From Kineosporiaceae bacterium (GTDB lineage Bacteria; Actinomycetota; Actinomycetes; Actinomycetales; Kineosporiaceae), in contig JBQGCR010000189.1 in NCBI GenBank assembly GCA_052038585.1, positions 1 through 28,639 of the forward strand: a DNA stretch of 28,639 nucleotides. Reading direction: 5' to 3'. Below the pieces are notes generated by a model. The model saw nothing but the letters and a program-made list of their open reading frames with translations, did not search any database and was not told the origin of the DNA. Of this stretch, positions 9,342 through 28,528 are shown piece after piece. How positions within the stretch are numbered: position 1 is the first letter of the stretch; every line of letters begins with the position of its first letter. Both the position numbers and the translations under genes were made by a program.

Positions 9342-10589
9342 TCATGATCGCAGAGCGCCGGACGGCTCAGCTCCACCTGCGTCACCCTCCTGTCCGGCGT
9401 GGCTGGTACGGCCGAGAAGCTCCACAGCGCGGAGGGTCACGGTGGAACGGGTCACGGGCAGGCCTTCTGCGGCCAGCTGCCCGCGGGCGCGTCGCTGCAG
9501 CACCACGCGCAGACCACCGACCTCCGCCAAGACCGCTTCGAGGTCGGCGACATCCGTAGCTGCAACGCCACCGGTAGCGGAAAGTCCCGAGCGCTGCGCG
9601 GCCGGTGCGGTGTCCCACCACGGACCGGGACACCGCAGACGTGCAGGACTGCGGGTTGCGGGGTCCGCGGCGAGTGCGTGCAGGGCCGGGATCGCTGCCG
9701 CGGCCGGCAGGCCGTGATCGAGGATGGCGTCCGCGACCACGTCCGTCAGCCGCCCGGAGATCCCACAGGCCGGCAGGCAGGCCGTGACGGCGTCGCAGAT
9801 CGGCGCAACGGGCGGCGACGTCGACCAGGTCGCTGACACCCAGGAGGGCCAGCATCTGCGCCCGCCGCCCGCTCCGGCGGTCGAGCGGCGGCGTGCCGTG
9901 CGGATTCTCAACGCCGGCGTCCCTGGCATCGGGTGCCGTGGAGGAGGGGCGGGGAGGAGGTGTGTTCTCGGTCAAGAACTCTGGGTTGGGCCGCGCCGGT
10001 GCGGCCACCCTGGCCGCACCCGTGCGGCCAGGGGTAGCCGCATCCTTGCGGCCACCCCTCCCCCGCGTCGCCCGGTCCGTAACCCCTGAGCGGGTGGCGC
10101 GGACCAGGTAACTGTTGGTCAGGTTCACTCCGTCCCGGCAACGGCGGGTCACCTCGACCGCCCCGATCCCGACCAGCTCCCTCAACGCCCTGTCAACGGA
10201 GTCGACGGACTTCTTCCGCAGCCGGTCGGCCAGGGTTCGCCGCGACGGCATCCGCCGGCCCGAGGACTGGCCGTACCTCAGCAGCACCGCGTACAGCCCG
10301 ACCGCGGCGTCGGAGATGTCGGCGTCCAGGACCCATTCCGGGACGATCGCGAACCGCTCCTCCAACAGCAGCGCAGCCGCATGCCGGCCGGTGTCCCCAG
10401 CGGCGTCGTGCCGGTCCGCCGGTTCGAGGTCGTCGACGTGGTCACCGGTCTGCGTGCGGGACGGGACGGCATCTGCCGACACGTTCCAGCGCTCGCCGGA
10501 CGGCGGGGGATGCGTTCTTCGAGGTCGTTGACGACGGGGGGCTCGAGGGGTTCGACTGGGCGTGGCAGGGCGAGCGAAGGGGTGGGCAT
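9342..10589 (-). pseudogene. Winged-HTH replication-initiator-like protein, copy 1, with two opposite frameshifts
   Basis: Colinear with the intact paralog at 26916-28265 (FAIVPEWVLDA.ISDAAV.LYAVLLRYG...SVDRAL.ELV; DPATRSPARL.CPGPWW). One base missing in the G5 run at 10505-10509 and one extra in the C3 run at 9762-9764; total span 1248 bp = 416 codons; GGAGG RBS. Confidence 0.8.
9989..10053. repeat. Three 18-bp palindromic iteron-like units inside rep copy 1
   Basis: GGCCGCGCCGGTGCGGCC (9989-10006), GGCCGCACCCGTGCGGCC (10012-10029) and AGCCGCATCCTTGCGGCC (10036-10053), separated by 5-6 nt C- or G-run spacers. Confidence 0.8.
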
Positions 10590-10659
10590 CCGGGCCTCCA
10601 GCAAGGGGTCCGGCGGCACACCACCCCCGACCCGGCCGGCCCCGCAGGAGCGGCAGGCG

Positions 10660-10680
10660 TTGTCCGCGGATTGTCCGCGG
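10660..10680 (+). repeat. Tandem TTGTCCGCGG x2, candidate integrase arm-type sites (left arm of att1)
   Basis: 10660-10669 and 10671-10680, ending 128 bp before the att core; same sequence and spacing at 28335-28355. Confidence 0.65.
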
Positions 10681-10807
10681 CGGGACCGGGAGGTGGTGTG
10701 CCGCGCAGGGATCAACCGACACACGGCGGAATCCCGAAATCTCACTGACCTGCACCAACACCGACAGGGCGGACGCGGTGGCACCAGGCGGACCAGGACC
10801 GAGGCCT

Positions 10808-10851
10808 CTGAAATCGGAAGGCTTGCGGATCGACCCCGCCCCTGGCCACCA
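10808..10851 (+). mobile_element. att site 1: degenerate 3' half of tRNA-Phe(GAA)
   Basis: CTGAAA-TCGGAAGGCTTGCGGATCGACCCCGCCCCTGGCCACCA; differs from att2 by one missing A and 4 substitutions; no D-arm or 5' acceptor strand upstream. Confidence 0.85.
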
Positions 10852-10853
10852 CA

Positions 10854-10876
10854 CCCAGGTCGTTGACCTGGGGTTT
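10854..10876 (+). terminator. Short hairpin directly after att1
   Basis: CCCAGGTC-GTT-GACCTGGG followed by GTTT, in the position usual for a tRNA terminator. Confidence 0.5.
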
Positions 10877-10918
10877 CGTCATTCAGGACCCTCGAGCAGT
10901 CGCTCGATGCGCTTCCGC

Positions 10919-10949
10919 TTGCTCACGGTTGCTCACGAACTGCTCACGG
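10919..10949 (+). repeat. Triple TGCTCACG repeat, candidate integrase arm-type sites (right arm of att1)
   Basis: TTGCTCACGG (10919), TTGCTCACGA (10929), CTGCTCACGG (10940); 10-11 bp period; shares consensus TTGYYCRCGG with the left-arm repeats. Confidence 0.65.
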
Positions 10950-10982
10950 TTCGACCTTCCGACGAGAGTCGGAAGGTCGAAC
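10949..10982. repeat. Perfect 15-bp inverted repeat with a 4-nt loop
   Basis: GTTCGACCTTCCGAC-GAGA-GTCGGAAGGTCGAAC. Confidence 0.85.
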
Positions 10983-11153
10983 TCTCCGGGGCAATCCTGC
11001 GTCACTGCCCGACATAGCGCTCTTCAGCGGCCTCTGGCGGGTCAGTGTCGCCAGGGAGCCACCCGGCATAACCACGGATCTGCGACGCACCCGTGCGGCC
11101 TCTGACTCCTAGCCCCGGCCTACCGACTAGCGCCGAATTGCTGCCTCAGGACA

Positions 11154-12098
11154 CTAGAGGTCCAGCACCAGCGGACCTCTTCCGCGGGACACGCACAGGC
11201 ACATCCGGTCCTGCTTGTCCTGTTCTTCCACAGTGAGGAACTGGTCACGGTGATCCAGCCGACCAGCGAGCACGCCGGTGAGACAGGTTCCGCAGACGCC
11301 CGTCTCGCAGCTGCTGTCGACGACTACCCCGGCGCGCGCCAGGGCGTTCAGCGCAGACTCGCCGGCGCCGACGACGACCTCTTGCCCGGTGCTCGCCAGC
11401 GTGACCGTGAACGCGGACTCGGTGTCGAGCGGCGCTGCCGTGAACGCCTCGGTCACCGGCGTCGGAAGCCCGAGCCGTGTTGCAGCGGCGGCCACGTCGA
11501 GCATCCAGGCCGCCGGGCCGCAGATGTAGACGGCCTGCGGACGGGCCGCCAGGGCCTCCAGCAGCCGCTTGCCGGTTCCCGCGCGGTCGGCGCCGCGATG
11601 GAGGTGGACGTGGCCGCCGGGGTCTACGGCCGCGACCTGACGACGGAACGGCGATCGTGCGGGGTCCCGGACGACGTGATGGAGATCGAAGTGTGCGCCG
11701 CGCCGGGCGAGGTCACGGGCCATCGACAGCAGGGGGGTGATGCCGATGCCGGCGGCGAGCAGCAGCACCGGCCCGTCGTGGGCGCCCAGCGGAAAGGTGT
11801 TCCGCGGGGCCCCCACCGTGACGAGGTCGCCCACGGACAATGCGTGCATCGCGGCCGATCCCCCACGGGAGGCGATGTCCAGTCGCACCCCCAACTCGTA
11901 CCCCCCCGAAACGTCGGAGTCGCACACGGAGTACTGACGCACCAGGCCGTCGGGTCCGGCAGCAATGTCCAGATGGCTACCGGGAGGCGCAGGAGCCAGC
12001 GGGCCAGACTCCGGGGCGACGAGCAGCCGGACGACGTCGGGCGCCACCAGCTCACGTTCGACAAGCCGCATCCGGCTCCGCGGCGGCTGATCGATCAC
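11154..12098 (-). CDS. PDR/VanB-family flavin and 2Fe-2S reductase for the Rieske oxygenase
   Basis: RQYS flavin motif, SRGGS, AAGIGITP NAD motif, C-terminal SCETGVCGTC...CLCVSR ferredoxin; GTGA overlap with the oxygenase stop (alternative ATG at 12071). Confidence 0.93.
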   Translation of the reverse strand: MIDQPPRSRMRLVERELVAPDVVRLLVAPESGPLAPAPPGSHLDIAAGPDGLVRQYSVCDSDVSGGYELGVRLDIASRGGSAAMHALSVGDLVTVGAPRNTFPLGAHDGPVLLLAAGIGITPLLSMARDLARRGAHFDLHHVVRDPARSPFRRQVAAVDPGGHVHLHRGADRAGTGKRLLEALAARPQAVYICGPAAWMLDVAAAATRLGLPTPVTEAFTAAPLDTESAFTVTLASTGQEVVVGAGESALNALARAGVVVDSSCETGVCGTCLTGVLAGRLDHRDQFLTVEEQDKQDRMCLCVSRGRGPLVLDL

Positions 12099-13159
12099 CT
12101 CGGATCGGCCGCCGGCACCGTGGCCGGCGAGGGCCTTTCGGCGTCGAGAAGCTGCTCCATGATCCGGTGCCAGCGCACGACCCCGGCGTCCGTCTCCAGC
12201 AGGATCGGGCGCGGCGCGTCCGCAGCGAAGGCGCGCAGATTGTGGTGCTGCGCGCGGATCATGGGCTCGTCCTGCTCCTCGAAGGCGAAGCGACGCAGGT
12301 CGGCCACCTTCAGCCGCATCTCGTCGCTGTCCGTGCCCGGCTGCAACCCCCAGCGGGTCGCGGCGGTGTGGTAATGCGTCGTCGTCGCAGTCTCCGGGGT
12401 GAGCACGTGCGTCCCGAAGTAGCCGGTCCCGGCCCGCCGGTCTTCCCCCGGTGCCGTCACCCCGACGTCGAGCAGGAGGTGGGACGGCGCATCCCAACGG
12501 AAGTCCGTCCAGGTGTCGACGAGCTGGCCTCCGCGGCCGAACAGCATGTCGAACATGCCCGGGGGCGGCACCGATGCGGCCTCCCGCACGACGCGGATCG
12601 TCGTGCCCGTCTGGACTACCTGCGTGCGTACGCCGAGCATCTGCTCGTTGCCGAGGATCCCGTCGTGCAAGAAGCTCGTGTGACTGCAATCCAGCAGGTT
12701 GTCGACGATGAGATCGAACGGTGCGTCCATCACCAAGTGGTCTCGGCGAGTGACGAAGTCCTCGCTGTCGAGGATGCTGAAGTCGGGGATCAGACGTTCG
12801 TCCGGAGTACCGTCGCCCGCCCACATCCAGATGCCGCCGTGCCGCTCCACGACCGTTCTGGTCGGCACGGAGGTACCGCGCGGGATCCGACCGTCCCCGT
12901 GAGGATTGCCCACGCAGGCGCCGGTGCTGTCGAACACCAGGCCGTGATAGCCGCAGGTGAGGCGGTCGCCGTTCAGCCGTCCCATCGACAGCGGCGCCGA
13001 GCGATGCGGGCAACGGTCCTCGAGCGCGTGCACGAGACCGTTCGGTTCTCGGAAGAAGACCATCGGCCTGTCGAGGAGGGTCCGGGCAAGCATCCGCCCG
13101 GGGACGACGTCGGCCGACCAGGCTGCGAGGTACCAGGCTGTGCGGAGGTACTCCATCAT
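12095..13159 (-). CDS. Rieske non-heme iron oxygenase, VanA/DdmC (O-demethylase)-like alpha subunit
   Basis: CPHR...CGYH Rieske cluster, DNLLDCSHTSFLH mononuclear Fe motif, late QDE; NPHGDG and GTHVLTPET resemble dicamba monooxygenase DdmC as I recall it; GGAGAG RBS. Confidence 0.92.
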   Translation of the reverse strand: MMEYLRTAWYLAAWSADVVPGRMLARTLLDRPMVFFREPNGLVHALEDRCPHRSAPLSMGRLNGDRLTCGYHGLVFDSTGACVGNPHGDGRIPRGTSVPTRTVVERHGGIWMWAGDGTPDERLIPDFSILDSEDFVTRRDHLVMDAPFDLIVDNLLDCSHTSFLHDGILGNEQMLGVRTQVVQTGTTIRVVREAASVPPPGMFDMLFGRGGQLVDTWTDFRWDAPSHLLLDVGVTAPGEDRRAGTGYFGTHVLTPETATTTHYHTAATRWGLQPGTDSDEMRLKVADLRRFAFEEQDEPMIRAQHHNLRAFAADAPRPILLETDAGVVRWHRIMEQLLDAERPSPATVPAADPR

Positions 13160-13177
13160 GCTCTCCATCCCCATTGA

Positions 13178-13234
13178 TGTACTCAGCAGTACAGGAATTG
13201 GGATGAGAGTGGGCCCGACAGGGGCGGATGTCAA
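13178..13234 (-). promoter_or_regulatory. Housekeeping-type promoter and downstream operator for the Rieske operon
   Basis: TTGACA (13229-13234) -N17- CACTCT (13206-13211) on the minus strand; palindrome TGTACT-CAGC-AGTACA (13178-13193) between the predicted TSS and the RBS. Confidence 0.55.
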
Positions 13235-13253
13235 TCCCCTGCCTGCCGGCCGA

Positions 13254-13829
13254 TCAGCGAACGATGCTCGGCAGGATGAGGTCCACGACGCGCGCCGGCC
13301 ATGCCGGGTCCGCCCAGCCCCGGCCCGCGAGGTGGTCCGCGTACAGCGCTCCGAACATCAGGCTTACGACGGCCTCGACGTCACAGTCGGCCGCGACCTG
13401 CCCCGCGGCGATCCCCCGCCGAAGCACGTTCGTGCACTGCTCGCGCCGGGGAAGAATGGTGCTTTCGCGCACGATCCGGAGCAGCTCTCCATCGGTCGCC
13501 TCATCGACCAGGCAACTGCCGATGATCGTCATCCCGCGCACGTCGACGTACTGCCGCCGCATCGTGTCCAGGACCGCGACGAGGTCGGTCCGCAGGTCGC
13601 CCGTCACGGGCGGAAGCTCCGCCAGTCGCAGATGTGCGAGCGCGGCACCGACGAGATCCTCCTTGCGGCGCCACCGGCTGTACACGGTCATCTTCGAGAC
13701 GCCCGCGGCCGTCGCCACCTGGTCCATGGTGAACGCGGGACCTTCTGTGCCGAGCAGGTCGAGTGCGGCCTCGAGGACGGCGCGGTCCTTGCCGGGATCT
13801 CGCGGTCTTCCACGAGTCGTTGCAGCCAC
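13254..13829 (-). CDS. TetR/AcrR family transcriptional regulator
   Basis: GRPRD...VLEAALDLL...FTMDQVATAAGVSKMTVYSRWRRKEDL HTH; C-terminal PVTGDLRTDL pattern. Confidence 0.95.
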   Translation of the reverse strand: MAATTRGRPRDPGKDRAVLEAALDLLGTEGPAFTMDQVATAAGVSKMTVYSRWRRKEDLVGAALAHLRLAELPPVTGDLRTDLVAVLDTMRRQYVDVRGMTIIGSCLVDEATDGELLRIVRESTILPRREQCTNVLRRGIAAGQVAADCDVEAVVSLMFGALYADHLAGRGWADPAWPARVVDLILPSIVR

Positions 13830-13865
13830 CCGCGGATGGTACGCCCCTTGCGGAGACCAGGAACC

Positions 13866-13905
13866 TGTGTCATCGTCACACCGCTACGTTCATCAATTGT
13901 TACAT
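13866..13905. promoter_or_regulatory. Candidate PaaX-type bipartite operator upstream of the hydrolase
   Basis: TGTGTCATC at 13866 is identical to the left half-site at 21112; imperfect partner TGTTACAT at 13898-13905 (25-nt spacer). Confidence 0.4.
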
Positions 13906-13927
13906 CGACTCACACCGGGGTGAGCTC

Positions 13928-14647
13928 ATGAGCAGCACCGATCCCTTCGTTCTCGTCACCGGCGCCTGGCACGGCGGCTGGGGGTGGCGGCCGGTCGCCG
14001 AGCACCTTCGGGCTGCCGGCCACCGGGTCTACACCCCGACGCTTCCCGGTCTCGCCGACGGCGACGACCCCACGGGTCTCACCCTCGCCGATACCGCCCG
14101 GGCCGTCGTGGACCTGGTCGTGGGCGAGGACCTCCACGACGTCCGGCTCGTGGGGCACAGCTGGGGCGGATACGTGATCACTGCCGCGGCTCCCGCTCTG
14201 GCCGACCGGCTGCGCAAGCTCGTCTACTGGAGCGCCTTCGTGCCCGCCGAGGGCAAGTCGCTCTTCGATGAGGTCCCGCCGCACTACCAGGACCTCTTCC
14301 GCGCGGTGGCCGGGGCATCCGGCAACAACACCGTGACCCTGCCGTTCGAGGTCTGGCAGCAGGGCTTCATGAACGATGCGGACGAGGCGGCTCAACGCAT
14401 CGTGCACTCTTTGCTCGTGCCGCAGCCGTTCCAGTACTTCACCGAGCCGGTCACTCCGCTGGACCCGGCCTTGGGAATCGAGACGAGTTACCTGCTGTCC
14501 GAGCTCGACCTCGGCCTGCCGCCGGGGGAGTACGGCTGGGAGCGATTCGCCGATCGGCTGAGCGTGCCCGTCCAGAAGGCGCCCGGGAGCCACGAGGCGC
14601 TGTTCACCGAGCCCGCCGGCCTCGCCGAGGCCCTCCGGCAGGCCTGA
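13928..14647 (+). CDS. Alpha/beta hydrolase of the salicylate/methyl-ester esterase type
   Basis: FVLVTGAWHGGWGW oxyanion region, GHSWGG nucleophile elbow, C-terminal GSHE catalytic His; 239 aa. Confidence 0.88.
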   Translation: MSSTDPFVLVTGAWHGGWGWRPVAEHLRAAGHRVYTPTLPGLADGDDPTGLTLADTARAVVDLVVGEDLHDVRLVGHSWGGYVITAAAPALADRLRKLVYWSAFVPAEGKSLFDEVPPHYQDLFRAVAGASGNNTVTLPFEVWQQGFMNDADEAAQRIVHSLLVPQPFQYFTEPVTPLDPALGIETSYLLSELDLGLPPGEYGWERFADRLSVPVQKAPGSHEALFTEPAGLAEALRQA

Positions 14648-14683
14648 GCCAGCGGTCCAGGGTGTGGCGTCGAGGGTCCAAGG

Positions 14684-14715
14684 GGGCGGGTCGTGACGGC
14701 AGTCACGACCAGCCC
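14684..14715. terminator. Hairpin downstream of the hydrolase
   Basis: GGTCGTGAC-GGCA-GTCACGACC, extended by GGGC/GCCC after one mismatch. Confidence 0.55.
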
Positions 14716-14771
14716 TCGCCGTTGGGTCGGAGGCAAGCGGCGTCGGAGGCGCCGGAAAGGCGCACTGCATT

Positions 14772-15608
14772 ATGGGACCCGTGGCTCAACGACCCCGCAC
14801 ACTGGTCCTCGACCTCTTCGGTGACTACCTGCGCTACCTCGACGGCGAAGTGCGGCTGAGTCATCTCACGACGCTTCTCGAGGCCTTCGGTATCGGTGCG
14901 CCCACGACGCGGGTGACTCTGTCCCGGCTCCGGCGCGAAGGCTGGTTCGAGACCGAGCGCATCGGCCGGGAGACGCTCTACCGGCTCACTCCGGGCATGC
15001 TCGGCGTCCTGGACGAGGGGCGCGAACGGATCTTCGCCGCACCCGTGACCCAGTGGTCCGGCACCTGGACGCTCGTCATCTACCAGGTGCCGGAGTCCGA
15101 GCGGCAGGAGCGCAACACCTTGCGCAAGTCGCTGTCGTGGAACGGTTTCGGGGCTCTGACAACGTCCACCTGGCTCGCCCCGGGAGATCGACGGCAGGAG
15201 ACGCGCACCCTTGTCGACTCCCTCACTGACGAGCTCGTAGACGTCCTGGCATGCGCCTCCGAGGGGCTCGAACACGACCGCGACCTCGCCCGCCGCTGCT
15301 GGGATCTCGAGGCGCTGGCACGGCAGTACGCCGAGTTCGTCAGTGACCACACAAGCCTGCTCCGCGCGGGGGCGGAACTATCCGGGGCCCCGGCCCTCCT
15401 GGCCCGCACCGGGCTCATCAGCGCCTATCGCGTCTTCCCCTTCCGGGACCCCAGACTCCCCCCCGACCTCCGGCCGGACCCGTGGCCGGGGGCGCAGGCG
15501 TACGACCTGTTCCGCAGGGTCCACACGTTGCTCGGACCTGCGGCGCGGGCCTACGTCGGACAGGTCGTCGGCGTCGAGCCGCCCGACCCCGGGCCGGCCG
15601 CCGACTGA
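14772..15608 (+). CDS. paaX: PaaX family transcriptional regulator (paralog 1)
   Basis: LVLDLFGDYLR, RVTLSRLRREGW, WSGTWTLVIYQVPE, C-terminal RVFPFRDPRLPPDLRPDPWPG; alternative GTG start at 14781. Confidence 0.92.
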   Translation: MGPVAQRPRTLVLDLFGDYLRYLDGEVRLSHLTTLLEAFGIGAPTTRVTLSRLRREGWFETERIGRETLYRLTPGMLGVLDEGRERIFAAPVTQWSGTWTLVIYQVPESERQERNTLRKSLSWNGFGALTTSTWLAPGDRRQETRTLVDSLTDELVDVLACASEGLEHDRDLARRCWDLEALARQYAEFVSDHTSLLRAGAELSGAPALLARTGLISAYRVFPFRDPRLPPDLRPDPWPGAQAYDLFRRVHTLLGPAARAYVGQVVGVEPPDPGPAAD

Positions 15609-15746
15609 CGGACCCGCGGCACGGCAACATCGGCCCACGGCAGCTCACCGGGGCCGTCACCCTGACACAGCTCGACCTGGCTGGACCTGGCTCGTCAGCG
15701 CTCTCCACGGTTCGTCGACGTCGGACGTTCGGGAGAGGCGCACGGC

Positions 15747-17435
15747 TCAGGACGGCGACAGGCGCCGGACGACGTCCTGACGCAACGCCTTCTTGTCGAT
15801 CTTGCCGACCTTGGTGGCCGGCAACTCGGGGATGACCTCGAGCCGCTCGGGGACCTTGTAGGTGGCCGCACCGGCCGCGAGCACTGCCGCGCGGACATCC
15901 GCGAGCGCGAGTGACGCACCGTCGGCGAGAACTGCGTACAGGCAGACACGCTCGCCGAGCACGGCATCCGGCATCGCCACGGCCGCACACTGCACCACCT
16001 GGGGCAGGCTGCGGTAGACGAGATTCTCGACGTCCTCGGCGCTGATCTTCTCCCCGCCCCGGTTGATCATGTCCTTGTCGCGGCCCTCGACGACGAGGTT
16101 GCCGTCCGGCCGCCGCCGGACGATGTCGCCGCTGCGGTACCAGCCGTCAGGGGTGAAGGCTCGGGCGTTCTGCTCCGGGGCGCGGTAGTAGCCGCGCGGC
16201 GTGTAGGGACCTCGGGTGAGCAGCGAACCGGCGGTGCCGTCGGAGACGTCCACGCCGAACTCGTCCACGATGCGCACCTCGTCGCCCTCGCTCATCGGAC
16301 GGCCCTGGGTCGTACAGACGACCTCGTCCGGGTCGTCGTCACGGGTGTAGTTGAGCAGCCCCTCGGCCATGCCGAACACCTGCTGCAGCCGGCAGCCCAG
16401 CACCGGCTGCACGGTGCGGGCGACGTCGTCCGCGAGCCGGGCCCCGCCCACCTGCAGCAGCCGCAGGGTGGCCAGCTGCGCGGCCCCGTACTCCTTCGCG
16501 TGCGTGATCCAGCGCTGGGCCACCGCGGGAACGGCCGCCGCGACGGTGACCCCCTCCGCAGCGATGGTGGCGAACACTCGCTCCGGCTCCGGCGAGGGCA
16601 GCAGGACGGTCCGCCCGCCGGCGAGCATCGTGCCGAGCAGGCCGGGGCAGGCGAGCGGGAAGTTGTGCGAGGCCGGCAGCGTCCCCAGGTACACGGCGTC
16701 CGGGCCCAAACCGCAGACCTCCGCGCTGGCCCGGGCGTTGTAGGCGTAGTCGTCGTGCGTCCTGGCGATGAGCTTCGGCAGGCCGGTCGTGCCGCCGGAA
16801 AGCAGGAAGACGGCGACGCTGCGGCTGTCCGGTGCGGCGGCGTCCCAGCGTGCCCGGTGCGCGGCCGCCTCGTCGGCGTCCTCGGGCTCGGCGCACAGTG
16901 CCGTGAGGTCGACGTGCCCGGTGCGCGGCGCGGAGCCGACCACGAGGACGTGCTCGAGGGTCGGGGCGTCCGCCCGAAGCTCGTCGGCGAGCGCCTCGTG
17001 GTCGAAGTCGCGCAGCACGTCCGGCACCGCCACGGCGGCCGCCTCGCTGTGGTCGACGATGTAGGCCATCTCGTGTCGACGGTGCGCGGGCAGGGCCATC
17101 ACCGGGACGATCCCGGCCCGCAGGCAAGCCAGCGTGAGGACGACGAACTGCCAGCAGTTCGGCAGCTGGACGACGACCCGGTCCTCGCGCCGCAGCCCGA
17201 GCTCGTCGGTCAGGCGGGTGGCGAGGGCGTCGGCGCGCGCCGTGAGGGAGCGGTAGGTGAGGCGCACCTCGTCGTCGACGAGGGCCACCGCGTCAGGGCG
17301 TCCGTCGGCGACGGCGAACAGCTCGGTGCCGAGCGAGAGGCCGCGCCACCACCCGCGTGCGGCGTAATCGCGGGCGAGGTCGTCGGGCCAGGGGACGACA
17401 CCGTCGCAGAGCGGGCTCACGGGCGTGCGGCTCAC
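15747..17435 (-). CDS. sdgA: Salicylate/2,3-dihydroxybenzoate-AMP ligase (DhbE family), SdgA-like
   Basis: LLSGGTTGLPKLIARTHDDYAY, PASHNFPLACPG, QQVFGMAEGLLNYTR, RGPYTPRGYYRA, KVGKIDK; context matches the Streptomyces sdgABC order. Confidence 0.9.
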   Translation of the reverse strand: MSRTPVSPLCDGVVPWPDDLARDYAARGWWRGLSLGTELFAVADGRPDAVALVDDEVRLTYRSLTARADALATRLTDELGLRREDRVVVQLPNCWQFVVLTLACLRAGIVPVMALPAHRRHEMAYIVDHSEAAAVAVPDVLRDFDHEALADELRADAPTLEHVLVVGSAPRTGHVDLTALCAEPEDADEAAAHRARWDAAAPDSRSVAVFLLSGGTTGLPKLIARTHDDYAYNARASAEVCGLGPDAVYLGTLPASHNFPLACPGLLGTMLAGGRTVLLPSPEPERVFATIAAEGVTVAAAVPAVAQRWITHAKEYGAAQLATLRLLQVGGARLADDVARTVQPVLGCRLQQVFGMAEGLLNYTRDDDPDEVVCTTQGRPMSEGDEVRIVDEFGVDVSDGTAGSLLTRGPYTPRGYYRAPEQNARAFTPDGWYRSGDIVRRRPDGNLVVEGRDKDMINRGGEKISAEDVENLVYRSLPQVVQCAAVAMPDAVLGERVCLYAVLADGASLALADVRAAVLAAGAATYKVPERLEVIPELPATKVGKIDKKALRQDVVRRLSPS

Positions 17436-19489
17436 GGTGCGGGCTCCTTGTCGACGATGAGGACGGCGTCCAGGGCGAGCAGCCCGTCCGCCGTCACGCG
17501 CAGCGGGTTGATCTCGACGTCCCGGACGTGCGGGCGGGCGTGCAGGAGGTCGCCGAGCGCGACGAGGACCCGGCCGACGGCCGCTCGATCCGCGGCGGGG
17601 CCGCCGCGGAAGCCGTCGAGCAGCACTGTCGCTCGCAGCTGGTCCAGCAGGGCAGCGGCAGCGGTGGCGTCCAGCGGTGCCGGCGCGAGCGCGACGTCGT
17701 CCAGGGCCTCGGCGACGACGCCGCCGAGGCCGACGAGTACGACCGGCCCGAACACGGGGTCGCGGGTGGCCCCGACGACGAGGTCGATGCCCGACGGGGC
17801 CATCGTCTCCACGAGGAACCGCCGGGCGCCGGCGGCCTCGAGCGCGTCCAGGGCTGCGTCGAGCGCCGCGGCGTCGCGCACGCCGAGGTGGACGCCGCCG
17901 ACGTCGGACTTGTGCGTCACCGAGGCGTCCAGCAGCTTGACCGCGACCGGGCCCGGCAGCTCCGCCAGGGCTCGGTGGGCCTCGTCGCGGTCGGCGCAGA
18001 CCCGGCGCGGAGGCGTCGGCACGCCAAGCGCTGCCAGCAAGGTCTTGGCCTCGTCCTCGTCGAGGTCACGGCCGGGGACGTCCGGCGGCGCCGGCGCCGC
18101 GGAGGGCGGTGTCTCCCGCCGGCGGGCGTGCCGGGCGCGGGAGTCCTCGACGAGGGCGGCCACAGCACTGGTCAAGGCGGCGGGGCCGGTGACGGCGGGC
18201 ACGCCGAGCGCGTGCAGGGCCGCACGCTGGCGCGCGACCTCGGCCTGCGGTCCCCCCAACCCGACGACGAACGGCGCCCCGCCGGCGGACGCCGCGCTGG
18301 CCACAGCCGCGGGCAGGTCGAGGGCGTCCGGCTCGCTGAGCGCGTAGACGCTGACGACGTCGACACCCGGGTCGGCGGCCACGGCGACGAGGACGTCGTC
18401 GAACCCCGCTCGGGGCCGGCCCGTGTCGACCGGGTTCGCCTGGTACGTCAACGGCGGCAGCACCGCGGACACGCCCGCCCGGGTCCGCTCGTCGAGCACG
18501 GGCAACTGGACGTCGCGGCCGCGCAGACCGTCGACGTGCAGCAGGCCGGGGCCGGCCTGCGCCGTCACGACCCCGACCCCCGCCGCGGGCGAGGCGGGCA
18601 GCCGGAAGGCCGACAGCGCGGTGACGGCGTCGACGAGCTCGCGCTCGTCGGCCACGAGAACGGCACCGGCGGCGCGCAGGACGGCCCGGGTCGTCCGCCA
18701 CGAGGTGGCCAGCGCGCCGGTGTGGGACCGGGCGAAGTCAGCGACGTCGTTGCGCCCGACGACGAGCGCCACGACCGGCTTGCGCGTGCTGAGGCGACGG
18801 ACGGCCGCCGCCAGCCGCGGCCCGTCGGCAACGGACTCGACGTGGAGGGCGACCGCCGCGGTGGCCTCGTCGTCCTCGAGGTACTCCAGGACGTCGGCCG
18901 CGGACACGTCCACGGCGTTGCCGAGCCCCACGGCGAGCGAGACGCCCACGCCGGCCTCGGCGAGCGCGAAGGCGAGCGCGTGATTGACGCCGCCGCTGGC
19001 CGCGACGACGGCGACCGGCCCCGCAGCGAGGGCCGTCGTCCCGGGGACGAACGAGGCCGTGAGCGCCCGGCCGGGCACCACGAAGCCGGAGGTGTTGGGG
19101 CCGAGCAGCGTCGTGCCGGTGCCCAGCGCCGCGGCGACGAGGGCCGCCTGGTGCGCGATCCCGTCGCCGCCCGCCTCGGCGTACCCGCCGGAGCAGACCA
19201 GCGCGGCCCGGACGCCCGCCCCCGCCACCTGCGTCACGACCGCCGCGGACGCGGCCGCCGGGACGCATAGGACGGCCAGGTCGAGCGGGTCACCGGCGGC
19301 GTCCGCCGCCTCGGCGACGCTCGCGTAGCGGCCCGCTCCCGGGTCGGCGTCCCGGGCATTGACCCCGACGACGGTGCCGGGGAACCCGGCCAGCGACCGG
19401 AGCATGACGGCGCCCAGCTTGCCCGGGTCGCGGGACGCCCCGATGACGACGATCCCGCGGGGCGCGAAGAGCGCGCCGAGCCCGCTCAC
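17432..19489 (-). CDS. sdgB: ADP-forming acyl-CoA synthetase family protein (CoA-binding + ligase + ATP-grasp), SdgB-like
   Basis: VIGASRDPGKLG CoA-binding motif, LLGPNTSG, SHTGALA with the phospho-His, HKSDVGGVHLG and EINPL ATP-grasp; GTGA overlaps at both ends. Confidence 0.88.
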   Translation of the reverse strand: MSGLGALFAPRGIVVIGASRDPGKLGAVMLRSLAGFPGTVVGVNARDADPGAGRYASVAEAADAAGDPLDLAVLCVPAAASAAVVTQVAGAGVRAALVCSGGYAEAGGDGIAHQAALVAAALGTGTTLLGPNTSGFVVPGRALTASFVPGTTALAAGPVAVVAASGGVNHALAFALAEAGVGVSLAVGLGNAVDVSAADVLEYLEDDEATAAVALHVESVADGPRLAAAVRRLSTRKPVVALVVGRNDVADFARSHTGALATSWRTTRAVLRAAGAVLVADERELVDAVTALSAFRLPASPAAGVGVVTAQAGPGLLHVDGLRGRDVQLPVLDERTRAGVSAVLPPLTYQANPVDTGRPRAGFDDVLVAVAADPGVDVVSVYALSEPDALDLPAAVASAASAGGAPFVVGLGGPQAEVARQRAALHALGVPAVTGPAALTSAVAALVEDSRARHARRRETPPSAAPAPPDVPGRDLDEDEAKTLLAALGVPTPPRRVCADRDEAHRALAELPGPVAVKLLDASVTHKSDVGGVHLGVRDAAALDAALDALEAAGARRFLVETMAPSGIDLVVGATRDPVFGPVVLVGLGGVVAEALDDVALAPAPLDATAAAALLDQLRATVLLDGFRGGPAADRAAVGRVLVALGDLLHARPHVRDVEINPLRVTADGLLALDAVLIVDKEPAP

Positions 19490-21096
19490 GGGGTGCCCTC
19501 GCCCACGGCGACGAGGTCGGCCCGGCCGGACAGGACGGCCGTCAGGGCGTCGTCGTCGCCGCCGTCCGGGCCGTCGACGAGCACGCTCACCAGACCGTGC
19601 TCCAGCCGCGCCTCCTCCGTGAGCAGCCGGCGCGTCAGAGCCGTGCCGCCGTGGACGGCGACCAGGCAGGCACCGGACGCCGCGGCGTCCGCGAGCGCAC
19701 GGGACGCCGCCGCGATCCCGGCCTCCGACTCCGGAGCCTCGACGTCGACCCCCCACGGCCCGGATCCGTCCGACTGCCGCATCTGTCTGGAACCGTTGCC
19801 GTGCAACGGGACGACGAGCCCGTCGAGGACGGCGGCCCCTGCCCGGACGACGGCGGTCCGCCGGGCGACCCGGTGCCCGGCGACGACGATGGCGCTGTCG
19901 AGCGGCTCGGCTCCGTGCAGGCCGCGCCAGCGGGCGTGGGCGGTGTCGACGAATGCGGGATCGCGCCGCCTCAGCTTGGCGTCAGTGAGGCTGCGCGTGA
20001 GGAAGTGGTGGGCGAACTGCCACGGCGGCAGGGCATCGTAGGAGCGGCCGAAGTGCTCCCACCAGGCCAGGCTGGGGCGGGCGGCGCCCTGGATCCGGGC
20101 GACCTGCGGCTGCCGCACGGCCTCGTACCTCTCGAGGGCGGCGTCGACGTCGTCGGCGCCGTCACCGGGGTGCTCAGCAAGGGCCGCGACGAGCGCGACG
20201 GCGTCCTCCATGGCCATTTTCGTGCCCGAGCCCACGGAGAAGTGCGCGGTGTGCGCCGCGTCGCCGAGCAGGGCGACGGCGGTGCCGCCGACCCGGTGCC
20301 GCCAGCGCGATGAGCCCCGGGTGCGGAAATTGGCCCAGCGGGAGTTGTTGACGAGCAACGGATGCCCGTCGAGCTGACCGGCGAACAGCTGCTCGAGGTA
20401 CGCGCGCGAGACCTCGTCGCTGGGCCCCGGCGGCTGCGTGACGTCGAAGGCGTGCAGCCCGGCGGCGCGCCACGACGCCTCGTCGGTCTCGACGATGAAG
20501 GTCGACCGTCCGCCGCCGATCGGATAGCCGTGGACGGCGAAGACGCCGTGCGGGCCGCGCTCGTGGACAAACGTGAGCCCCTGGAACGGGTACGTCGTCC
20601 CCAGCCAGATGAACTTCACGGCCGACGTCACAAGGGTCGGCTCGAAAACCTGGCCGAACCGGTCGCGCAGCTGGGAGTTCGCGCCGTCCGCCGCCACGAC
20701 GAGGTCGTAGCCGGCACCCAGCAGGTCCTCCGGTGCGACCGGGGAGGCGAAGCGGACGTCGACGCCGGCGTCGGCGGCACGTTCCTGCATCAGGCGCAGG
20801 AGCGTGCGACGTTCCACTGCGGCCATGCCGTTGCCCCCGCACCGCCACTGCTCGCCGCGGAGGCGCACCTCGATCGAGTCCCAGTGCACGCCGTGCTGCT
20901 CGAGCGCGGTCCGCAGCACGGGGTCGGCCTCGTGGATGCCGTCCAGCGTCGCGTCGGAGAAGACGACACCGAAGCCGAAGGTGTCCTCGGCCCGGTTGCG
21001 CTCGAAGACCGTCACCTGGCGCGCGGGGTCGGCACGCTTGGCCAGCGTGGCGGCGAACAGGCCGCCAGGGCCGCCGCCGAGGACGGCTATCCGCAT
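19486..21096 (-). CDS. sdgC: Salicyloyl-CoA 5-hydroxylase-like flavin monooxygenase (SdgC/AbmA family) with a shortened C-terminal domain
   Basis: MRIAVLGGGPGGL, TFGFGVVFSD, VAADGANS, LLGDAAHTAHFSVGSGTKMAMEDA; 536 aa ending in SGRADLVA. Confidence 0.88.
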   Translation of the reverse strand: MRIAVLGGGPGGLFAATLAKRADPARQVTVFERNRAEDTFGFGVVFSDATLDGIHEADPVLRTALEQHGVHWDSIEVRLRGEQWRCGGNGMAAVERRTLLRLMQERAADAGVDVRFASPVAPEDLLGAGYDLVVAADGANSQLRDRFGQVFEPTLVTSAVKFIWLGTTYPFQGLTFVHERGPHGVFAVHGYPIGGGRSTFIVETDEASWRAAGLHAFDVTQPPGPSDEVSRAYLEQLFAGQLDGHPLLVNNSRWANFRTRGSSRWRHRVGGTAVALLGDAAHTAHFSVGSGTKMAMEDAVALVAALAEHPGDGADDVDAALERYEAVRQPQVARIQGAARPSLAWWEHFGRSYDALPPWQFAHHFLTRSLTDAKLRRRDPAFVDTAHARWRGLHGAEPLDSAIVVAGHRVARRTAVVRAGAAVLDGLVVPLHGNGSRQMRQSDGSGPWGVDVEAPESEAGIAAASRALADAAASGACLVAVHGGTALTRRLLTEEARLEHGLVSVLVDGPDGGDDDALTAVLSGRADLVAVGEGTP

Positions 21097-21110
21097 CGGG
21101 CATCCCTTAT

Positions 21111-21150
21111 ATGTGTCATCTATGAGCCGGACGGCGCTACAGTGACACAT
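21111..21150. promoter_or_regulatory. Candidate PaaX operator between divergent sdgC and paaX
   Basis: Perfect 8-bp inverted repeat ATGTGTCA-N24-TGACACAT; widely spaced half-sites resemble the E. coli PaaX operator architecture. Confidence 0.55.
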
Positions 21151-21243
21151 GTGCGTCGACGGCCGCAAGACCGCGTGGCCTCGGACGCGCGGTGACCACC
21201 CGGCGTCCAGGACAATCACGGGCGGGGCCGCGAGAGGAGGACG

Positions 21244-22047
21244 ATGAAGCCGCGGTCGGTGGTGTTCGACCTGTTCGGGGACCATCTGCGCTACCTCGCC
21301 GGCGCCGTCCGGACCCAGAGCCTCGTGGCACTGCTCTCCGCGTTCGACATCGGGGAGCCGACCGCCCGGATCGTGCTCGCGCGGCTGCGGAAGGAAGGCT
21401 GGCTGGAGACGCGACGGTCGGGCCGGGAGGCGGTCTGGGCCGTGACGCCGCGCGCCCTGGGGATGCTCGACGACGGGCGCGCGCGCATCTTCGAGCGGGC
21501 GCGTGCGCCATGGGACGGCCAGTGGCGGATGGTCATCTACACCGTCGCCGAGCAGGACCGCGCAGAACGCGAGCAGCTCCGGCGGGCCCTGGCCTGGCTC
21601 GGGTTCGGCCCCCTCGCGGCGTCGACGTGGCTCAGCCCGCACGACCGGCTCGACGACGTCGAGAAGGCGCTTGCCGAACACACCGCCGTCCGGGCGGACC
21701 TCTTGACCTGCCGGTCCCGCGGCCGCGCGGCCGACCTCGACATGGTGTCCCGCTGCTGGGACCTCGACACCCTTGCCGGGGACTACCTGGAGTTCGTATC
21801 CAGCGTGGACCGCCTGCCCTCCCCCACCGACCTCGCCCGGCTGCCTGGGCCCGAGTCGCTGCGCGTCGGGGTCCGCCTCGTCGCCGACTACCGCCGGTTC
21901 CCCTTCCGCGACCCCGACCTGCCCGCCGACCTGCTGCCGCGAGGCTGGCCCGGGACGCACGCCCACGAGCGGTTCATCGCGGCCCACGAGGCGCTCGCCG
22001 GCCCGGCTCGCCGGTTCGTCAGCGAGGTCCTCGAGCGGGACGGCTGA
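21244..22047 (+). CDS. paaX: PaaX family transcriptional regulator (paralog 2)
   Basis: MKPRSVVFDLFGDHLR, WDGQWRMVIYTVAE, LGFGPLAASTW, RRFPFRDPDLPADLLP; GAGGAGG RBS. Confidence 0.93.
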   Translation: MKPRSVVFDLFGDHLRYLAGAVRTQSLVALLSAFDIGEPTARIVLARLRKEGWLETRRSGREAVWAVTPRALGMLDDGRARIFERARAPWDGQWRMVIYTVAEQDRAEREQLRRALAWLGFGPLAASTWLSPHDRLDDVEKALAEHTAVRADLLTCRSRGRAADLDMVSRCWDLDTLAGDYLEFVSSVDRLPSPTDLARLPGPESLRVGVRLVADYRRFPFRDPDLPADLLPRGWPGTHAHERFIAAHEALAGPARRFVSEVLERDG

Positions 22048-22069
22048 CGCGGCAAGGCTTTCCGGCCGC

Positions 22070-22843
22070 TCAAAGCGCGTCCGTGACGGCATCCGCCGCG
22101 GCGGCCAGGGCCGCGGCGATCCGGGGCACGCGGTCCTTGCGGTACCGCACCGACGGCATGGAGACCGAGACGGCCGCGACCGTGTCACCGTGACGGTCCA
22201 CCACGGCGCGCCCCACGGCGGCGAGCCCGCGCTCGGACCGCTCGAGGTTGATGGCGATGCCGGTACGCCGGACGGCGCGCAGCTCGCGGTGCAGGCGGGG
22301 CAGGTCCGGCCGGTCGGCCGCCCGGTCGGCGAACCGTTCCGGCGCGTAGAGCGCGTCGACCCGCTCCGGGCTGAGAGCGGCGAGCATGACGAGGCCGCCG
22401 GTGACCGTGTGGGCGGGGAAGACCATGCCCTCGCGGTTGCCGACCCGCAGCGCTTGGTCGCACTCGACCGAGGCGATGAAGCGCGCCGTCGTACCGATCC
22501 GGACCGACAGGTTGCACGTCTCGCCGAGGGTGTCGACGAGCAGGCGCATCGGTTCCAGCGCCGCCGCCCGCAGCCGCGCGACGTCCGACGAGGAGCGGCC
22601 CGAGAGCTCGAGCACCGGGCCGGCCCGGTAGACCCGGTCCTCGCCCTGCACGGCGAAGTCGCGGTACACCAGCGCCTGGAGCAGCCGGTGCGCCGTCGAC
22701 CGCGCGACCCCCAGTCGCTCTGCAGCGGCAGAGACCGTGATCGGCCCCTCGACCTGCAGGACGACCGCGAGTCGCAACGCGTGGTCGACACTCGTCACCG
22801 CGTACGCAGGCGGCGTCTTGAACGGGGCAGACGCGCGGGCCAC
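22070..22843 (-). CDS. IclR family transcriptional regulator (GenR/NagR-like) of the gentisate operon
   Basis: CAGGAGG RBS before GTG 22843; SVDHALRL...LGVARSTAHRLLQAL HTH; TVTGGLVMLA and AVSVSMP effector domain; divergent from gentisate dioxygenase. Confidence 0.92.
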   Translation of the reverse strand: MARASAPFKTPPAYAVTSVDHALRLAVVLQVEGPITVSAAAERLGVARSTAHRLLQALVYRDFAVQGEDRVYRAGPVLELSGRSSSDVARLRAAALEPMRLLVDTLGETCNLSVRIGTTARFIASVECDQALRVGNREGMVFPAHTVTGGLVMLAALSPERVDALYAPERFADRAADRPDLPRLHRELRAVRRTGIAINLERSERGLAAVGRAVVDRHGDTVAAVSVSMPSVRYRKDRVPRIAAALAAAADAVTDAL

Positions 22844-22857
22844 CGATCCTCCTGGTG

Positions 22858-22872
22858 TTCTGCTGTGCAGAA
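22858..22872. promoter_or_regulatory. Candidate IclR operator
   Basis: TTCTGC-TGT-GCAGAA 15-bp palindrome in the 70-bp divergent intergenic region. Confidence 0.6.
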
Positions 22873-22913
22873 TCGTATGTTCCCGCCGGGGAGCCCGCGA
22901 CGAGCATCGGGGC

Positions 22914-24053
22914 ATGACCGACACGCCGCCGTTCGCCGTCGTCGCCAAGGACGGGCCGGACCAGCCCCCGGTGACGCCGGAGCTCCAGGACCTGTACCGG
23001 GGCTTCGAGAAGGCTCTGCTGATCCCGCTGTGGACCGAGATCGGCGGCCTCATGCCGCACGAACCGGTCTCCAAGGCCTCCCCGCACCTGTGGGAGTGGA
23101 AGACCCTGCTCGAGCTGGCAGGGTTGTCCGGCGAGCTCGTGCCGGTCGGCCGTGGCGGCGAGCGACGGGCGATCGCCCTGGCGAACCCGAGCCTGGGCGG
23201 CCGGCCGTACGCGACACCGACCCTGTGGGCCGCGATCCAGTACCTCATGCCGGGCGAGGACGCCCCCGAGCACCGGCACACCCAGAACGCGTTCCGGTTC
23301 GTCGTCGAGGGCGAAGGCGTCTGGACCGTCGTCGAGCGCGAACCGGTCCCGATGCGGCGCGGCGACTTCCTGCCGCAGGCAGGGATGCACTGGCACGCCC
23401 ACCACAACGCCGCCTCGACGCCCATGGCGTGGATCGACGGGCTGGACATCCCGTTCCAGTACGAGGTCGAGGGCCAGTTCTTCGACCTCGGCCGGGACAC
23501 GCTCACCGAGGCCGAGCACGCGACACCCGAGCGCTCCCGGTCGGAGCGGCTCTGGGGCCACCCGGCTCTCGCCCCGGTGTCTCAGCTCGGGTCCACGGCG
23601 GGCAGCCCGCTGCTCGCCTACCGCTGGGTCGACACCGACGCCGCTCTGACCGACCAGCTCGCCCTCGAGCGCGAAGGCTTCGCAGGCGTCGTCGAACCCG
23701 ACCACGCACTCGTCCGGTACACCAACCCGACGAACGGCGGCGACGTCCTGCCGACGATCCGGACCCAGTTCCATCGCATCGCGGCCGGCGCGCAGACCGC
23801 GCCGCGGCGCGAGACTGGGTCGTCGGTGTACCAGGTCTTCGACGGCTCCGGCCGGGTCACCGTCGGCAGCCACTCCTGGTCCATCACCCGAGGCGACCTG
23901 TTCGTCGTCCCGTCGTGGCAGCCGTTCTCCGTCGTCTCGCAGGCCTCCGCGTCGGACTCCGACTCCGGCGCCCTCGACCTCTTCCAGTTCAGCGACGCAC
24001 CGATCTTCGAGCGCCTCAACCTGTTCAAGTCCGCCACGGAGGACGTCTCGTGA
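22914..24053 (+). CDS. nagI: Gentisate 1,2-dioxygenase (bicupin)
   Basis: GRGGERRAIALANP, AAIQYL.PGE.AP.HRHTQNAFRF, HWHAHHN, WIDGLDIP, GDLFVVPSW, LFQFSDAPIFERL. Confidence 0.93.
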   Translation: MTDTPPFAVVAKDGPDQPPVTPELQDLYRGFEKALLIPLWTEIGGLMPHEPVSKASPHLWEWKTLLELAGLSGELVPVGRGGERRAIALANPSLGGRPYATPTLWAAIQYLMPGEDAPEHRHTQNAFRFVVEGEGVWTVVEREPVPMRRGDFLPQAGMHWHAHHNAASTPMAWIDGLDIPFQYEVEGQFFDLGRDTLTEAEHATPERSRSERLWGHPALAPVSQLGSTAGSPLLAYRWVDTDAALTDQLALEREGFAGVVEPDHALVRYTNPTNGGDVLPTIRTQFHRIAAGAQTAPRRETGSSVYQVFDGSGRVTVGSHSWSITRGDLFVVPSWQPFSVVSQASASDSDSGALDLFQFSDAPIFERLNLFKSATEDVS

Positions 24054-24913
24054 AGCTCGCCACCGCCCGCCTGACGTCCTCGACGGGCTCCCGGACGGCC
24101 GCCGTCCGCGTCGAGGGCGACACCCTTGTCGAGCTGCCGTTCACCGACGTCGGCGCGCTCCTCGCGACGCCCGGCTGGCAGCAGGCGGCCTCGGCCGCCG
24201 GGCCGGAGCACCCGACGGACGGAGTGACCTTCGCACCCGTCGTTCCCGCACCTTCCAAGGTCGTCTGCGTCGGCCTCAACTACAAGAACCACATCCAGGA
24301 GATGGGCCGGGACCTGCCCGAGCACCCCACGCTGTTCTCGAAGTTCGCCGACTGCCTCGTCGGCTCGACCGACGACGTCGTCCGGCCCGCCGAGACGACC
24401 GAGTTCGACTGGGAGGTCGAGCTCGCCGTCGTCGTCGGCACACCCGACGCGACGCCGGTGCGGCGGGCGGACGACGAGGCCGCCGCCACGGCGATCGCCG
24501 GGTTCACGGTCCTCAACGACGTGACGTGCCGGGACTGGCAGTTCCGCACCCGGGAGTGGCTGCAGGGCAAGAACTGGGACTCCACGACCCCGGTCGGCCC
24601 CTGGCTCGTCACCCCGGACGAGGTCGGCGGCGTCCGGCCCTCGCTGAAGGTCACCTGCTCCGTCGACGGCGTCGTCATGCAGTCCGACACGACCGGCGAC
24701 CTGCTCTTCGACCCCGTCGACCTCGTCAAGTACGTCTCCACGATGGTCCGGCTCAACCCCGGCGACGTCATCGCCACCGGCACCCCCGGCGGCGTCGGCC
24801 ACGCCCGCAAGCCCCCGCTGTACCTGGCCGGCGGGGAGCTGCTCGTCACCGAGGTCGAGGGCATCGGCCGGCTCGAGAACCGCGTCGTCACCGACCCGGC
24901 CCGGAGCGCCTGA
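24050..24913 (+). CDS. nagK: Fumarylacetoacetate hydrolase family protein (fumarylpyruvate hydrolase)
   Basis: VCVGLNYKNHIQEMG, DWEVELAVVVG, LNDVTCRDWQ, WLQGKNW, GDVIATGTPGGVG; GTGA overlap with the dioxygenase. Confidence 0.92.
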   Translation: MKLATARLTSSTGSRTAAVRVEGDTLVELPFTDVGALLATPGWQQAASAAGPEHPTDGVTFAPVVPAPSKVVCVGLNYKNHIQEMGRDLPEHPTLFSKFADCLVGSTDDVVRPAETTEFDWEVELAVVVGTPDATPVRRADDEAAATAIAGFTVLNDVTCRDWQFRTREWLQGKNWDSTTPVGPWLVTPDEVGGVRPSLKVTCSVDGVVMQSDTTGDLLFDPVDLVKYVSTMVRLNPGDVIATGTPGGVGHARKPPLYLAGGELLVTEVEGIGRLENRVVTDPARSA

Positions 24914-25566: not shown

Positions 25567-25576
25567 AGGACTGGTC

Positions 25577-26845: not shown

Positions 26846-26919
26846 CTCGTCGCCATGCAGCAGGGCGACGAGACCGGCCCCTCGTCACCTGGCTCGAGGC
26901 GGTCACCGACGACGTCTAC
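26846..26919 (+). pseudogene. 3'-terminal remnant of a cupin-domain gene
   Basis: With one C added at 26879-26881 it reads LVAMQQGDETGPLVTWLEAVTDDVY, resembling the recalled C-terminus of small cupin proteins (HLAMQEADxxGxxVTWxExVTDxxY); no upstream portion present. Confidence 0.45.
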
Positions 26920-28526: not shown

Positions 28527-28528
28527 GC

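Follow-up and report, generated by a model that had tools for sequence, protein, structure and literature searches.

The attachment sites (attP) of phage lambda, with arm sites P1/P2 and P'1-P'3, and of mycobacteriophage L5, with P1-P7, are used by heterobivalent integrases, and L5 targets a tRNA gene. The closest described case to the locus presented here is that of pSAM2 from Streptomyces ambofaciens, which integrates at tRNA-Pro, and pACPL from Actinoplanes sp. SE50/110. In these elements two 21-nt tandem repeats enclose an identity segment (43 nt) located in the tRNA 3' end (PMC3364876), and a passage of the same paper, citing Raynal et al., has the pSAM2 repeats bound by Int and needed for efficient recombination. 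Three integrative and conjugative elements of actinomycetes (AICEs), pMEA100, pSE211 and pMR2, integrate in tRNA-Phe (PMC2440964, Table 1), and tandem accretion and cis-mobilizable elements (CIMEs) are described at the att sites belonging to integrative and conjugative elements (ICEs), for example in the ICESt1/ICESt3 family (PMC5704250, PMC6323972). Here we analysed a 28,639-nt stretch of DNA from a Kineosporiaceae bacterium (GCA_052038585.1), hereafter the window, which is the entire contig C189 (JBQGCR010000189.1) of a 984-contig, 4.73-Mb draft with 72.5% G+C. It contains two sites, att1 and att2, whose cores are direct copies of the 3' part of tRNA-Phe and which are accompanied by short direct repeats. 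On the basis of comparative sequence analysis, these repeats are quite probably arm-type sites of heterobivalent tyrosine integrases that insert islands at the tRNA-Phe 3' end, and att1 appears to be a tandem-array junction of two element types around a decayed core.

The core of att1 (10808-10850; all core and arm features lie on the forward strand) is a degenerate tRNA-Phe 3' part reaching from the anticodon loop to the 3' end, with 90% identity over 40 nt to the tRNA-Phe on another contig of the draft, C974. Alignment with att2 revealed that it has lost one A from the anticodon loop and that its T-stem is mutated, and contigs of two public runs, X1 and X2, confirmed this sequence. On the left, the P arm consists of a pair of predicted arm-type sites, TTGTCCGCGG twice with an 11-nt period (10660-10669 and 10671-10680), which ends 127 nt before the core. 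On the right, the tRNA fragment is directly followed by a terminator-like hairpin and TTT (10854-10872, forward strand; fold -8.5 kcal/mol, z = -3.4), and an equivalent hairpin also stands after the tRNA end at attL and att2. The P' arm, at 69-99 nt past the core, is a triplet of TTGCTCACGG (10919-10928), TTGCTCACGA (10929-10938) and CTGCTCACGG (10940-10949), with periods of 10 and 11 nt, which we predict to be arm-type sites of a second integrase subfamily. A perfect hairpin with a 14-bp stem and a 4-nt loop (10950-10981; fold -21.6 kcal/mol, z = -7.1) abuts the triplet. It sits 170 nt downstream of the stop codon of a reductase gene, and may be either the terminator of this gene or a deletion boundary.

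At att2, the core (28483-28526, 44 nt) shows 100% identity to the intact tRNA-Phe in the 3' part of that gene, and its left pair, again TTGTCCGCGG twice (28335-28355), is 100% identical to that of att1 and also lies 127 nt before the core. ARAGORN detected no tRNA gene in the window, both cores being tRNA halves only, and an Rfam scan of 10300-11300 gave no match. An initial annotation of the window, made from the letters alone, had placed the repeats on both sides of the att1 core, and its coordinates were confirmed. It had also given att2 the same left pair at the same offset without a right-hand triplet, and we found no triplet in the 113 nt between this core and the contig end. The repeats occur far above chance: TTGYYCRCGG, the word to which that annotation fitted them, has 5 matches in the window against 0.78 expected, and none of 100 shuffles reached 5. 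The direct orientation held, but the fit of the triplet is exact in only one of its three copies, with one mismatch in each of the other two. In the 4.73-Mb draft TTGTCCGCGG is present in 13 copies, five of which form three tandem pairs (the partner in the third pair has one mismatch), and all three pairs lie within about 150 nt of a tRNA-Phe core. When the pair pattern was searched in 49 genomes of the Kineosporiaceae family, with the reversed pattern as control, 12 matches were obtained against 0 for the control.

The only intact tRNA-Phe of the assembly is located on C974. There, tRNA-Phe is followed by a terminator-like hairpin, by TTGTCCGCGG-A-TTGTCCGCGC at +83 in the same orientation, and by the 3' end of a tyrosine integrase gene, which lies on the opposite strand and whose tail is read through the repeats. 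This is the tyrosine integrase that the initial annotation had advised seeking near the intact tRNA-Phe. Apart from the repeats, the C974 flanks are unrelated to the left arms of the window. The gene adjoining the left arm in the window is a Rep-like HTH_36 gene and not an integrase, the integrase being the one beside the intact tRNA-Phe on C974. With one pair beside the Rep-like gene and another beside the integrase, the TTGTCCGCGG element type therefore has a 2+2 layout.

Relatives of this type, which we call family 1, carry the word (G/T)TGTCCGCG(G/C)-A(A/T)-TGTCCGCG. Left pairs at the same offset as in the window were found in three genomes (G044, G045 and G047) and on three metagenome contigs, right pairs at +65 to +83 in G043, G044 and G045, and on one contig (G045:C541) both arms surround a single tRNA half. 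On G044:C109 an intact tRNA-Glu/Asp/Phe cluster is followed by a pair at +83 and by an integrase that is complete and shares 74% identity with the C974 fragment. In this ortholog of the C974 integrase, Pfam detects an N-terminal arm-binding domain (Arm-DNA-bind_4, 26.6 bits against a cut-off of 22.3) together with Phage_int_SAM_3 and Phage_integrase. The two arms also share their spacer: GGATTGTCC occurs in both arms of the present genome and G(G/C)AATGTCC in both arms of the Kineosporia-group genomes, so that ATT here stands against AAT there and both arms change together.

An alignment of 8 related family-1 left arms showed that the pair is kept in all of them. The same is true of a perfect 11-bp inverted repeat around the left pair, GGCACACCACC / GGTGGTGTGCC (10615-10625 with 10692-10702, and 28290-28300 with 28367-28377; fold of 10615-10702 -42.9 kcal/mol, z = -5.2), which is invariant in 8/8 aligned left arms and absent from the right arms. 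Each of its halves contains TGTGCCGC, that is, the arm word plus one extra base, and it may be a further site for an integrase, Xis or a regulator, or form a cruciform. The stretches between pair and core (10681-10807 and 28356-28482) are 94.5% identical to each other, against about 76-83% in the adjoining rep coding sequence, and this higher identity suggests either constraint on the arm or recent conversion. A small coding open reading frame (ORF) through the left arm was considered and rejected, since the differences between relatives are all non-synonymous; for the same reason the arm is conserved at the DNA level.

The second type, family 2, comprises 11 integrase loci from Kineosporiaceae and Winogradskya that are 53-100% identical to the query and 48-49% identical to family 1. 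Its word is TTGCTCAC(G/C)G. In 10 of the 11 loci, 2-4 repeats of this word with a 10-11-nt period lie at +62 to +135 from the tRNA end, in the interval that separates this end from the stop codon of the integrase and next to the latter; the eleventh, from Kineococcus xinjiangensis, carries TTGTCAGCAG twice in their place. Because the word recurs at four different tRNA genes, namely tRNA-Phe, tRNA-Arg(TCT), tRNA-Arg(ACG) and tRNA-Gly(CCC), it follows the integrase family and not the core. A genome-wide search for the family-2 pattern in five genomes gave 2-7 matches in each, and the reversed control gave 0 in all five. Partner pairs were found at the far ends: in G052, 12.3 kb from the integrase end and 139 nt to the left of a 3' half of tRNA-Arg (45 nt), and in Winogradskya consettensis (G049), 30 kb away and 139 nt left of a tRNA-Phe half. 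The triplet of the window matches family 2 in word, phasing and orientation as well as in how far it lies from the tRNA end, and its nearest look-alike is TTGCTCACGG-A-TTGCTCACGA-AC in the right arm of the locus L046.

Both subfamilies thus have words on either side of the core that are distinct from the core itself. Positional conservation at homologous att sites had been set beforehand as a point on which the proposal could fall; the positions are kept in other genomes and at other tRNA genes, and they track the integrase lineage. The suggestion of two related but distinct integrases agrees with the 48-49% identity between the subfamilies. Where the word is one of the variants TGTCCGCG and TGTCAGCAG, the integrase N-domain is a variant as well, which hints that N-domain and arm word co-vary, in two lineages only. 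In an alignment of the integrase N-domains (A4), the motifs HGSW-x-(F/Y)T-x-D and Q-x-x-RSG(F/Y) are common to those from loci with TTGCTCAC arms, and the lineages with TGTC-type arms (G044:C109 and Kineococcus) show QVAK-(G/S)-GF and altered second strands.

Compared with known systems, the locus resembles pSAM2 and pACPL in having an identity segment of about 43-58 nt that corresponds to the tRNA 3' end, a tandem of about 21 nt made of a 9-10-nt word on each side (2+2), and an adjacent integrase gene. It differs in the word, which is of the GTCACSCAG type in pSAM2/pACPL and TGTCCGCG or TTGCTCAC here, and in the tRNA target. Moreover, one arm is next to a Rep-like gene rather than xis-int, right arms of the second subfamily hold as many as four copies, and the sites here are predicted from sequence. 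As in lambda and L5, there are an N-terminal arm-binding domain, arm sites apart from the core sites on both sides, and helical phasing. However, the lambda-like 2+3 arrangement noted in the initial annotation is fortuitous and due to the junction: 2+2 is the native layout of the TTGTCCGCGG type, and the TTGCTCAC type has 2 repeats on the left and 2-4 on the right, so that att1 only mimics lambda through the joined arms of two element types, and there is no sign of IHF, Xis or Fis sites. The AICEs pMEA100, pSE211 and pMR2, likened here by tRNA target, have transfer genes as well as replication genes of the RepAM or RepSA type, which are absent from the window.

Our reading starts from what was directly observed, namely the anatomy of the sites, their positional conservation, their co-occurrence with integrase genes and the arm-binding domain of the orthologous integrase. 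From this we infer binding of the words by integrases, a crossover position and any present-day mobility, as follows. The N-terminal arm-binding domain of the integrase would dock on (A/T)TGTCCGCG or TTGCTCAC(G/C)G words about 130 nt to the left and 60-110 nt to the right of a 44-bp identity segment, from the tRNA-Phe anticodon loop to the 3' end, while the catalytic domains would work on the core. Integration would rebuild the tRNA from the element's own copy, and the 3' half displaced by it would remain at the far end. Through repeated insertions an array of tRNA halves would arise, each lying between one element's left arm and the right arm of the following element. Accordingly arranged, the left side of att1 would be the Rep-proximal arm of a TTGTCCGCGG-type element, and on its right side a TTGCTCAC-type element whose integrase has been lost would contribute its integrase-proximal arm. 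The cognate integrase of the TTGTCCGCGG type would be that beside the intact tRNA-Phe on C974, and that of the TTGCTCAC type is absent from the window. Many tRNA-targeting integrases exchange strands in the anticodon-loop region. If strand exchange occurs there, att1 may be crippled by the loss of one nucleotide in this part. By its perfect core and the intact rep frame beside it, att2 looks competent as the right end of anything that the C974 integrase may excise from the tRNA-Phe gene.

Several findings weigh against this reading. The arms of the 17.7-kb island between att1 and att2 are mismatched, the triplet side being of family-2 type and the att2 end of family 1, and they therefore need an internal deletion fusing two elements, hybridisation, or an integrase of loose specificity. 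The triplet is followed by neither an integrase nor a remnant of one: tblastn with three integrases gave nothing near 10850-11200. In the relatives, the last repeat contains or adjoins the integrase stop codon; in the window, the hairpin 10950-10981 and then the reductase gene stand there instead. The initial annotation had regarded att1 as the junction of two tandemly integrated relatives. The different types of its left and right arms bear this out, but a simple model of two relatives fails on the mismatched arms, and because neither integrase nor remnant is found after the triplet, the relative on the right can be no more than a decayed or hybrid island. For family 2, the Pfam arm-domain match falls below the cut-off (E 0.035), and the N-domain as modelled by AlphaFold (three strands and a helix, pLDDT 74) has no significant fold match: Foldseek against the PDB returned nothing, and a wide VIA search gave Z scores of at most 5.3, with AP2 domains at 4.5, 4.0 and 3.9, in the noise range. 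Finally, the N-terminal remainder of the integrase of this genome is absent from the assembly, and C974 and the window are contigs without an assembled physical link.

Two more findings of this kind concern the left pair, for which the main alternative is an operator or iteron, bound by the Rep-like HTH_36 protein or by another regulator of the element and controlling either the rep promoter or the origin. In the two copies of the window, and likewise in each of the 8 related left arms, the pair occupies the stretch 71-91 nt upstream of the conserved rep start, so that a role in transcription is conceivable; the first TTGTCCGCGG copy holds the palindrome TCCGCGGA, which would suit a dimeric regulator; an excised circle would put both pairs upstream of rep; and a different HTH_36 gene, on the metagenomic contig L122, likewise has the pair upstream. 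We nevertheless consider this explanation improbable. The palindrome is not kept in relatives, where only TGTCCGCG is conserved, and the pair also occurs at the integrase end beside the intact tRNA, kilobases from rep when the element is integrated. In addition, homologous TTGCTCAC pairs stand in family-2 left arms whose neighbours are not HTH_36 genes, which argues against Rep operators, such pairs are also found at the integrase end in 11 loci, and the word tracks the integrase lineage.

For the triplet, the alternative is a short tandem repeat that arose by chance, or the 3' region of the reductase gene, merely resembling the arm word. That no integrase follows would fit this view, as would the flank beyond the repeats, which has no similarity to the right arms of relatives, the 27 single occurrences of TTGCTCACG(G/A) in the genome, and the strong abutting hairpin, which could terminate the reductase gene. 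Yet there are three direct copies with a 10-11-nt period at 69-99 nt past a tRNA-Phe half and a terminator hairpin, as in the integrase-bearing relatives, the closest match is the L046 right arm mentioned above, and no other tandem of the word exists in the genome; we therefore assign a chance origin little probability. It is very improbable that the repeats serve a recombination directionality factor (Xis) or a host bending protein instead of an integrase, since, although in att arms Xis sites, too, consist of short, helically phased direct repeats, directionality-factor sites normally occupy one arm only whereas the same word is found here on both, and the word tracks the integrase subfamily across elements and tRNA targets; no xis gene was located in the assembled parts.

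Arm-type sites of integrases inserting at tRNA-Phe thus remain our preferred reading of the repeats, and it bears on the status of the island. The cargo between att1 and att2 (11154-26593) contains no integrase and no transfer gene among the ORFs scanned with Pfam, and PF00589, the integrase family, has no match on contig C189. Integrase and xis, replication and FtsK-like transfer modules do not occur together between the two sites, and the sole mobility-related gene found there is one Rep-like gene. Hence, the island is att-flanked and has no recombinase of its own, as defines a CIME, and because it lacks an integrase, it could be moved only by an integrase supplied elsewhere. An integrase with the same arm word adjoins the intact tRNA-Phe on C974, the contig not linked to the window. 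Like the CIMEs of the ICESt1/ICESt3 family, the island is integrase-less, att-flanked and in tandem with relatives at one site, and the junction is structured as attP; unlike them, its helper integrase is inferred from another contig, its arms are of two types, and no excision product appeared in the contigs searched. Specifically, no excision or circle joints between att1 and att2 were found in the contigs of four public runs, which are blind to rare events. The junction of triplet and cargo found only weak gene-level matches in 48 family genomes.

It is conceivable, though doubtful, that the island is a still-mobile hybrid, forming a circle with a TTGTCCGCGG-type left arm and a TTGCTCAC-type right arm that is moved in trans by either subfamily, with a TTGYYCRCGG-like word read loosely. 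If this were so, cross-compatible arm sites would allow decayed catabolic islands to be carried along by several helper elements at the tRNA-Phe hot spot. The type of site described here is already well known, and no new mechanism is revealed. What the analysis provides is a concrete, testable predicted arm word for an integrase family of actinobacteria that is widespread and uncharacterised. The word, the TTGCTCAC(G/C)G class with its TGTCCGCG variant, is seen at no fewer than four (at least 4) tRNA targets. It can be used to delimit islands and to spot integrase-less remnants in draft genomes.

The array houses a catabolic cluster for aromatic acids (gentisate). Its oxidation genes encode a Rieske oxygenase with its reductase, an FAD monooxygenase and a gentisate dioxygenase-like bicupin; the other enzymes are a hydrolase, aryl-CoA ligases, an FAA-family hydrolase and a mycothiol maleylpyruvate isomerase, and the regulators are a TetR, two PaaX and an IclR protein. 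The region 11154-25566 reads as a CoA-dependent aromatic-acid and gentisate pathway cluster. The Rep-like HTH_36 gene is present twice, in both cases on the reverse strand. Copy 2 (26916-28265) has an intact frame and matches Pfam HTH_36 above the cut-off. Copy 1 (9382-10589; Pfam HTH_36) shares 55% amino acid identity with it, and its start codon at 10589 is preceded by a conserved GGAGG; the rep ATG and ribosome-binding site are also present in the 8 related left arms. Relative to copy 2, copy 1 has a frame shift near 10504, about 28 codons past the start. This frameshift is uncertain, because a contig of one public run (X2) has an extra G after 10504, and it may be a polymorphism or an assembly error in the G-run.

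Public runs, among them straw metagenomes, were compared as Logan contigs and not as raw reads. Contigs from two straw-metagenome runs span 10689-14682 with one or two differences, and since these independent contigs bridge the region, the att1 junction is not an assembly artefact.

The tRNA-Phe gene of Kineosporiaceae is a heavily used hot spot. The tRNA-Phe core was matched in 47 of the 48 other family genomes, many with arrays of tRNA halves in the same orientation, up to ten of them on one Kineosporia contig. On three contigs, G043:C103 (Kineosporia sp. A_224), G005:C2 and G018:C1, 4-10 tRNA-Phe 3' halves follow one another in one orientation over up to 130 kb, and most of these halves have no adjoining integrase gene. 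The flank of att2 belongs to this picture. The initial annotation had it border chromosomal DNA, for which we found no support: the 113 nt to its right (28527-28639, forward strand), a hairpin and a CCGGAC-type word, are homologous to a module of about 275 bp, inside which the contig ends, and which recurs at 5 or more (at least 5) other tRNA-Phe halves in two Kineosporia genomes. In its full form (L034:8834-9110, L038 and L039) the module consists of a long hairpin and three phased CCGGA-containing words, and the left arms that match it carry CGCCCAGGA twice. The module is probably a third element family. Contig C943 was considered as a continuation past att2, as it matches the gene after one Kineosporia copy of the flank, and was rejected for lack of overlap with the window end.

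A scan of metagenomes for the 20-mer pair gave 115 matches of mixed nature. Some stand at the ends of tRNA-Arg(CCG) or tRNA-Gly(GCC) beside mobile-element genes, and others were rejected as coincidences inside coding sequence, for example in ribosomal protein S19-like genes. No integrases were found beside the metagenome copies of the pair at tRNA-Arg. A TGTCCGCGGAATGTCCGCG pair lies 48 nt after tRNA-Arg(CCG) or tRNA-Gly(GCC) on contigs of 53-66% G+C (L063, L074, L079, L084, L095, L098, L100, L117, L121, L122, L126 and L127), where it adjoins helicase, GmrSD, Prim-Pol or HTH_36 genes. The arm word may therefore be used well beyond Kineosporiaceae. A literature search for the arm words returned unrelated primer matches only. 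At two loci of G043, L196 (G043:C39) and L205 (G043:C10), TGTCCGCGCATTGTCCGC(G/A) pairs are accompanied, at a distance of about 150 nt, by the 3' part of another tRNA, which is on the opposite strand, so that the orientation of the arm relative to the core is inverted in comparison with the tRNA-Phe sites.

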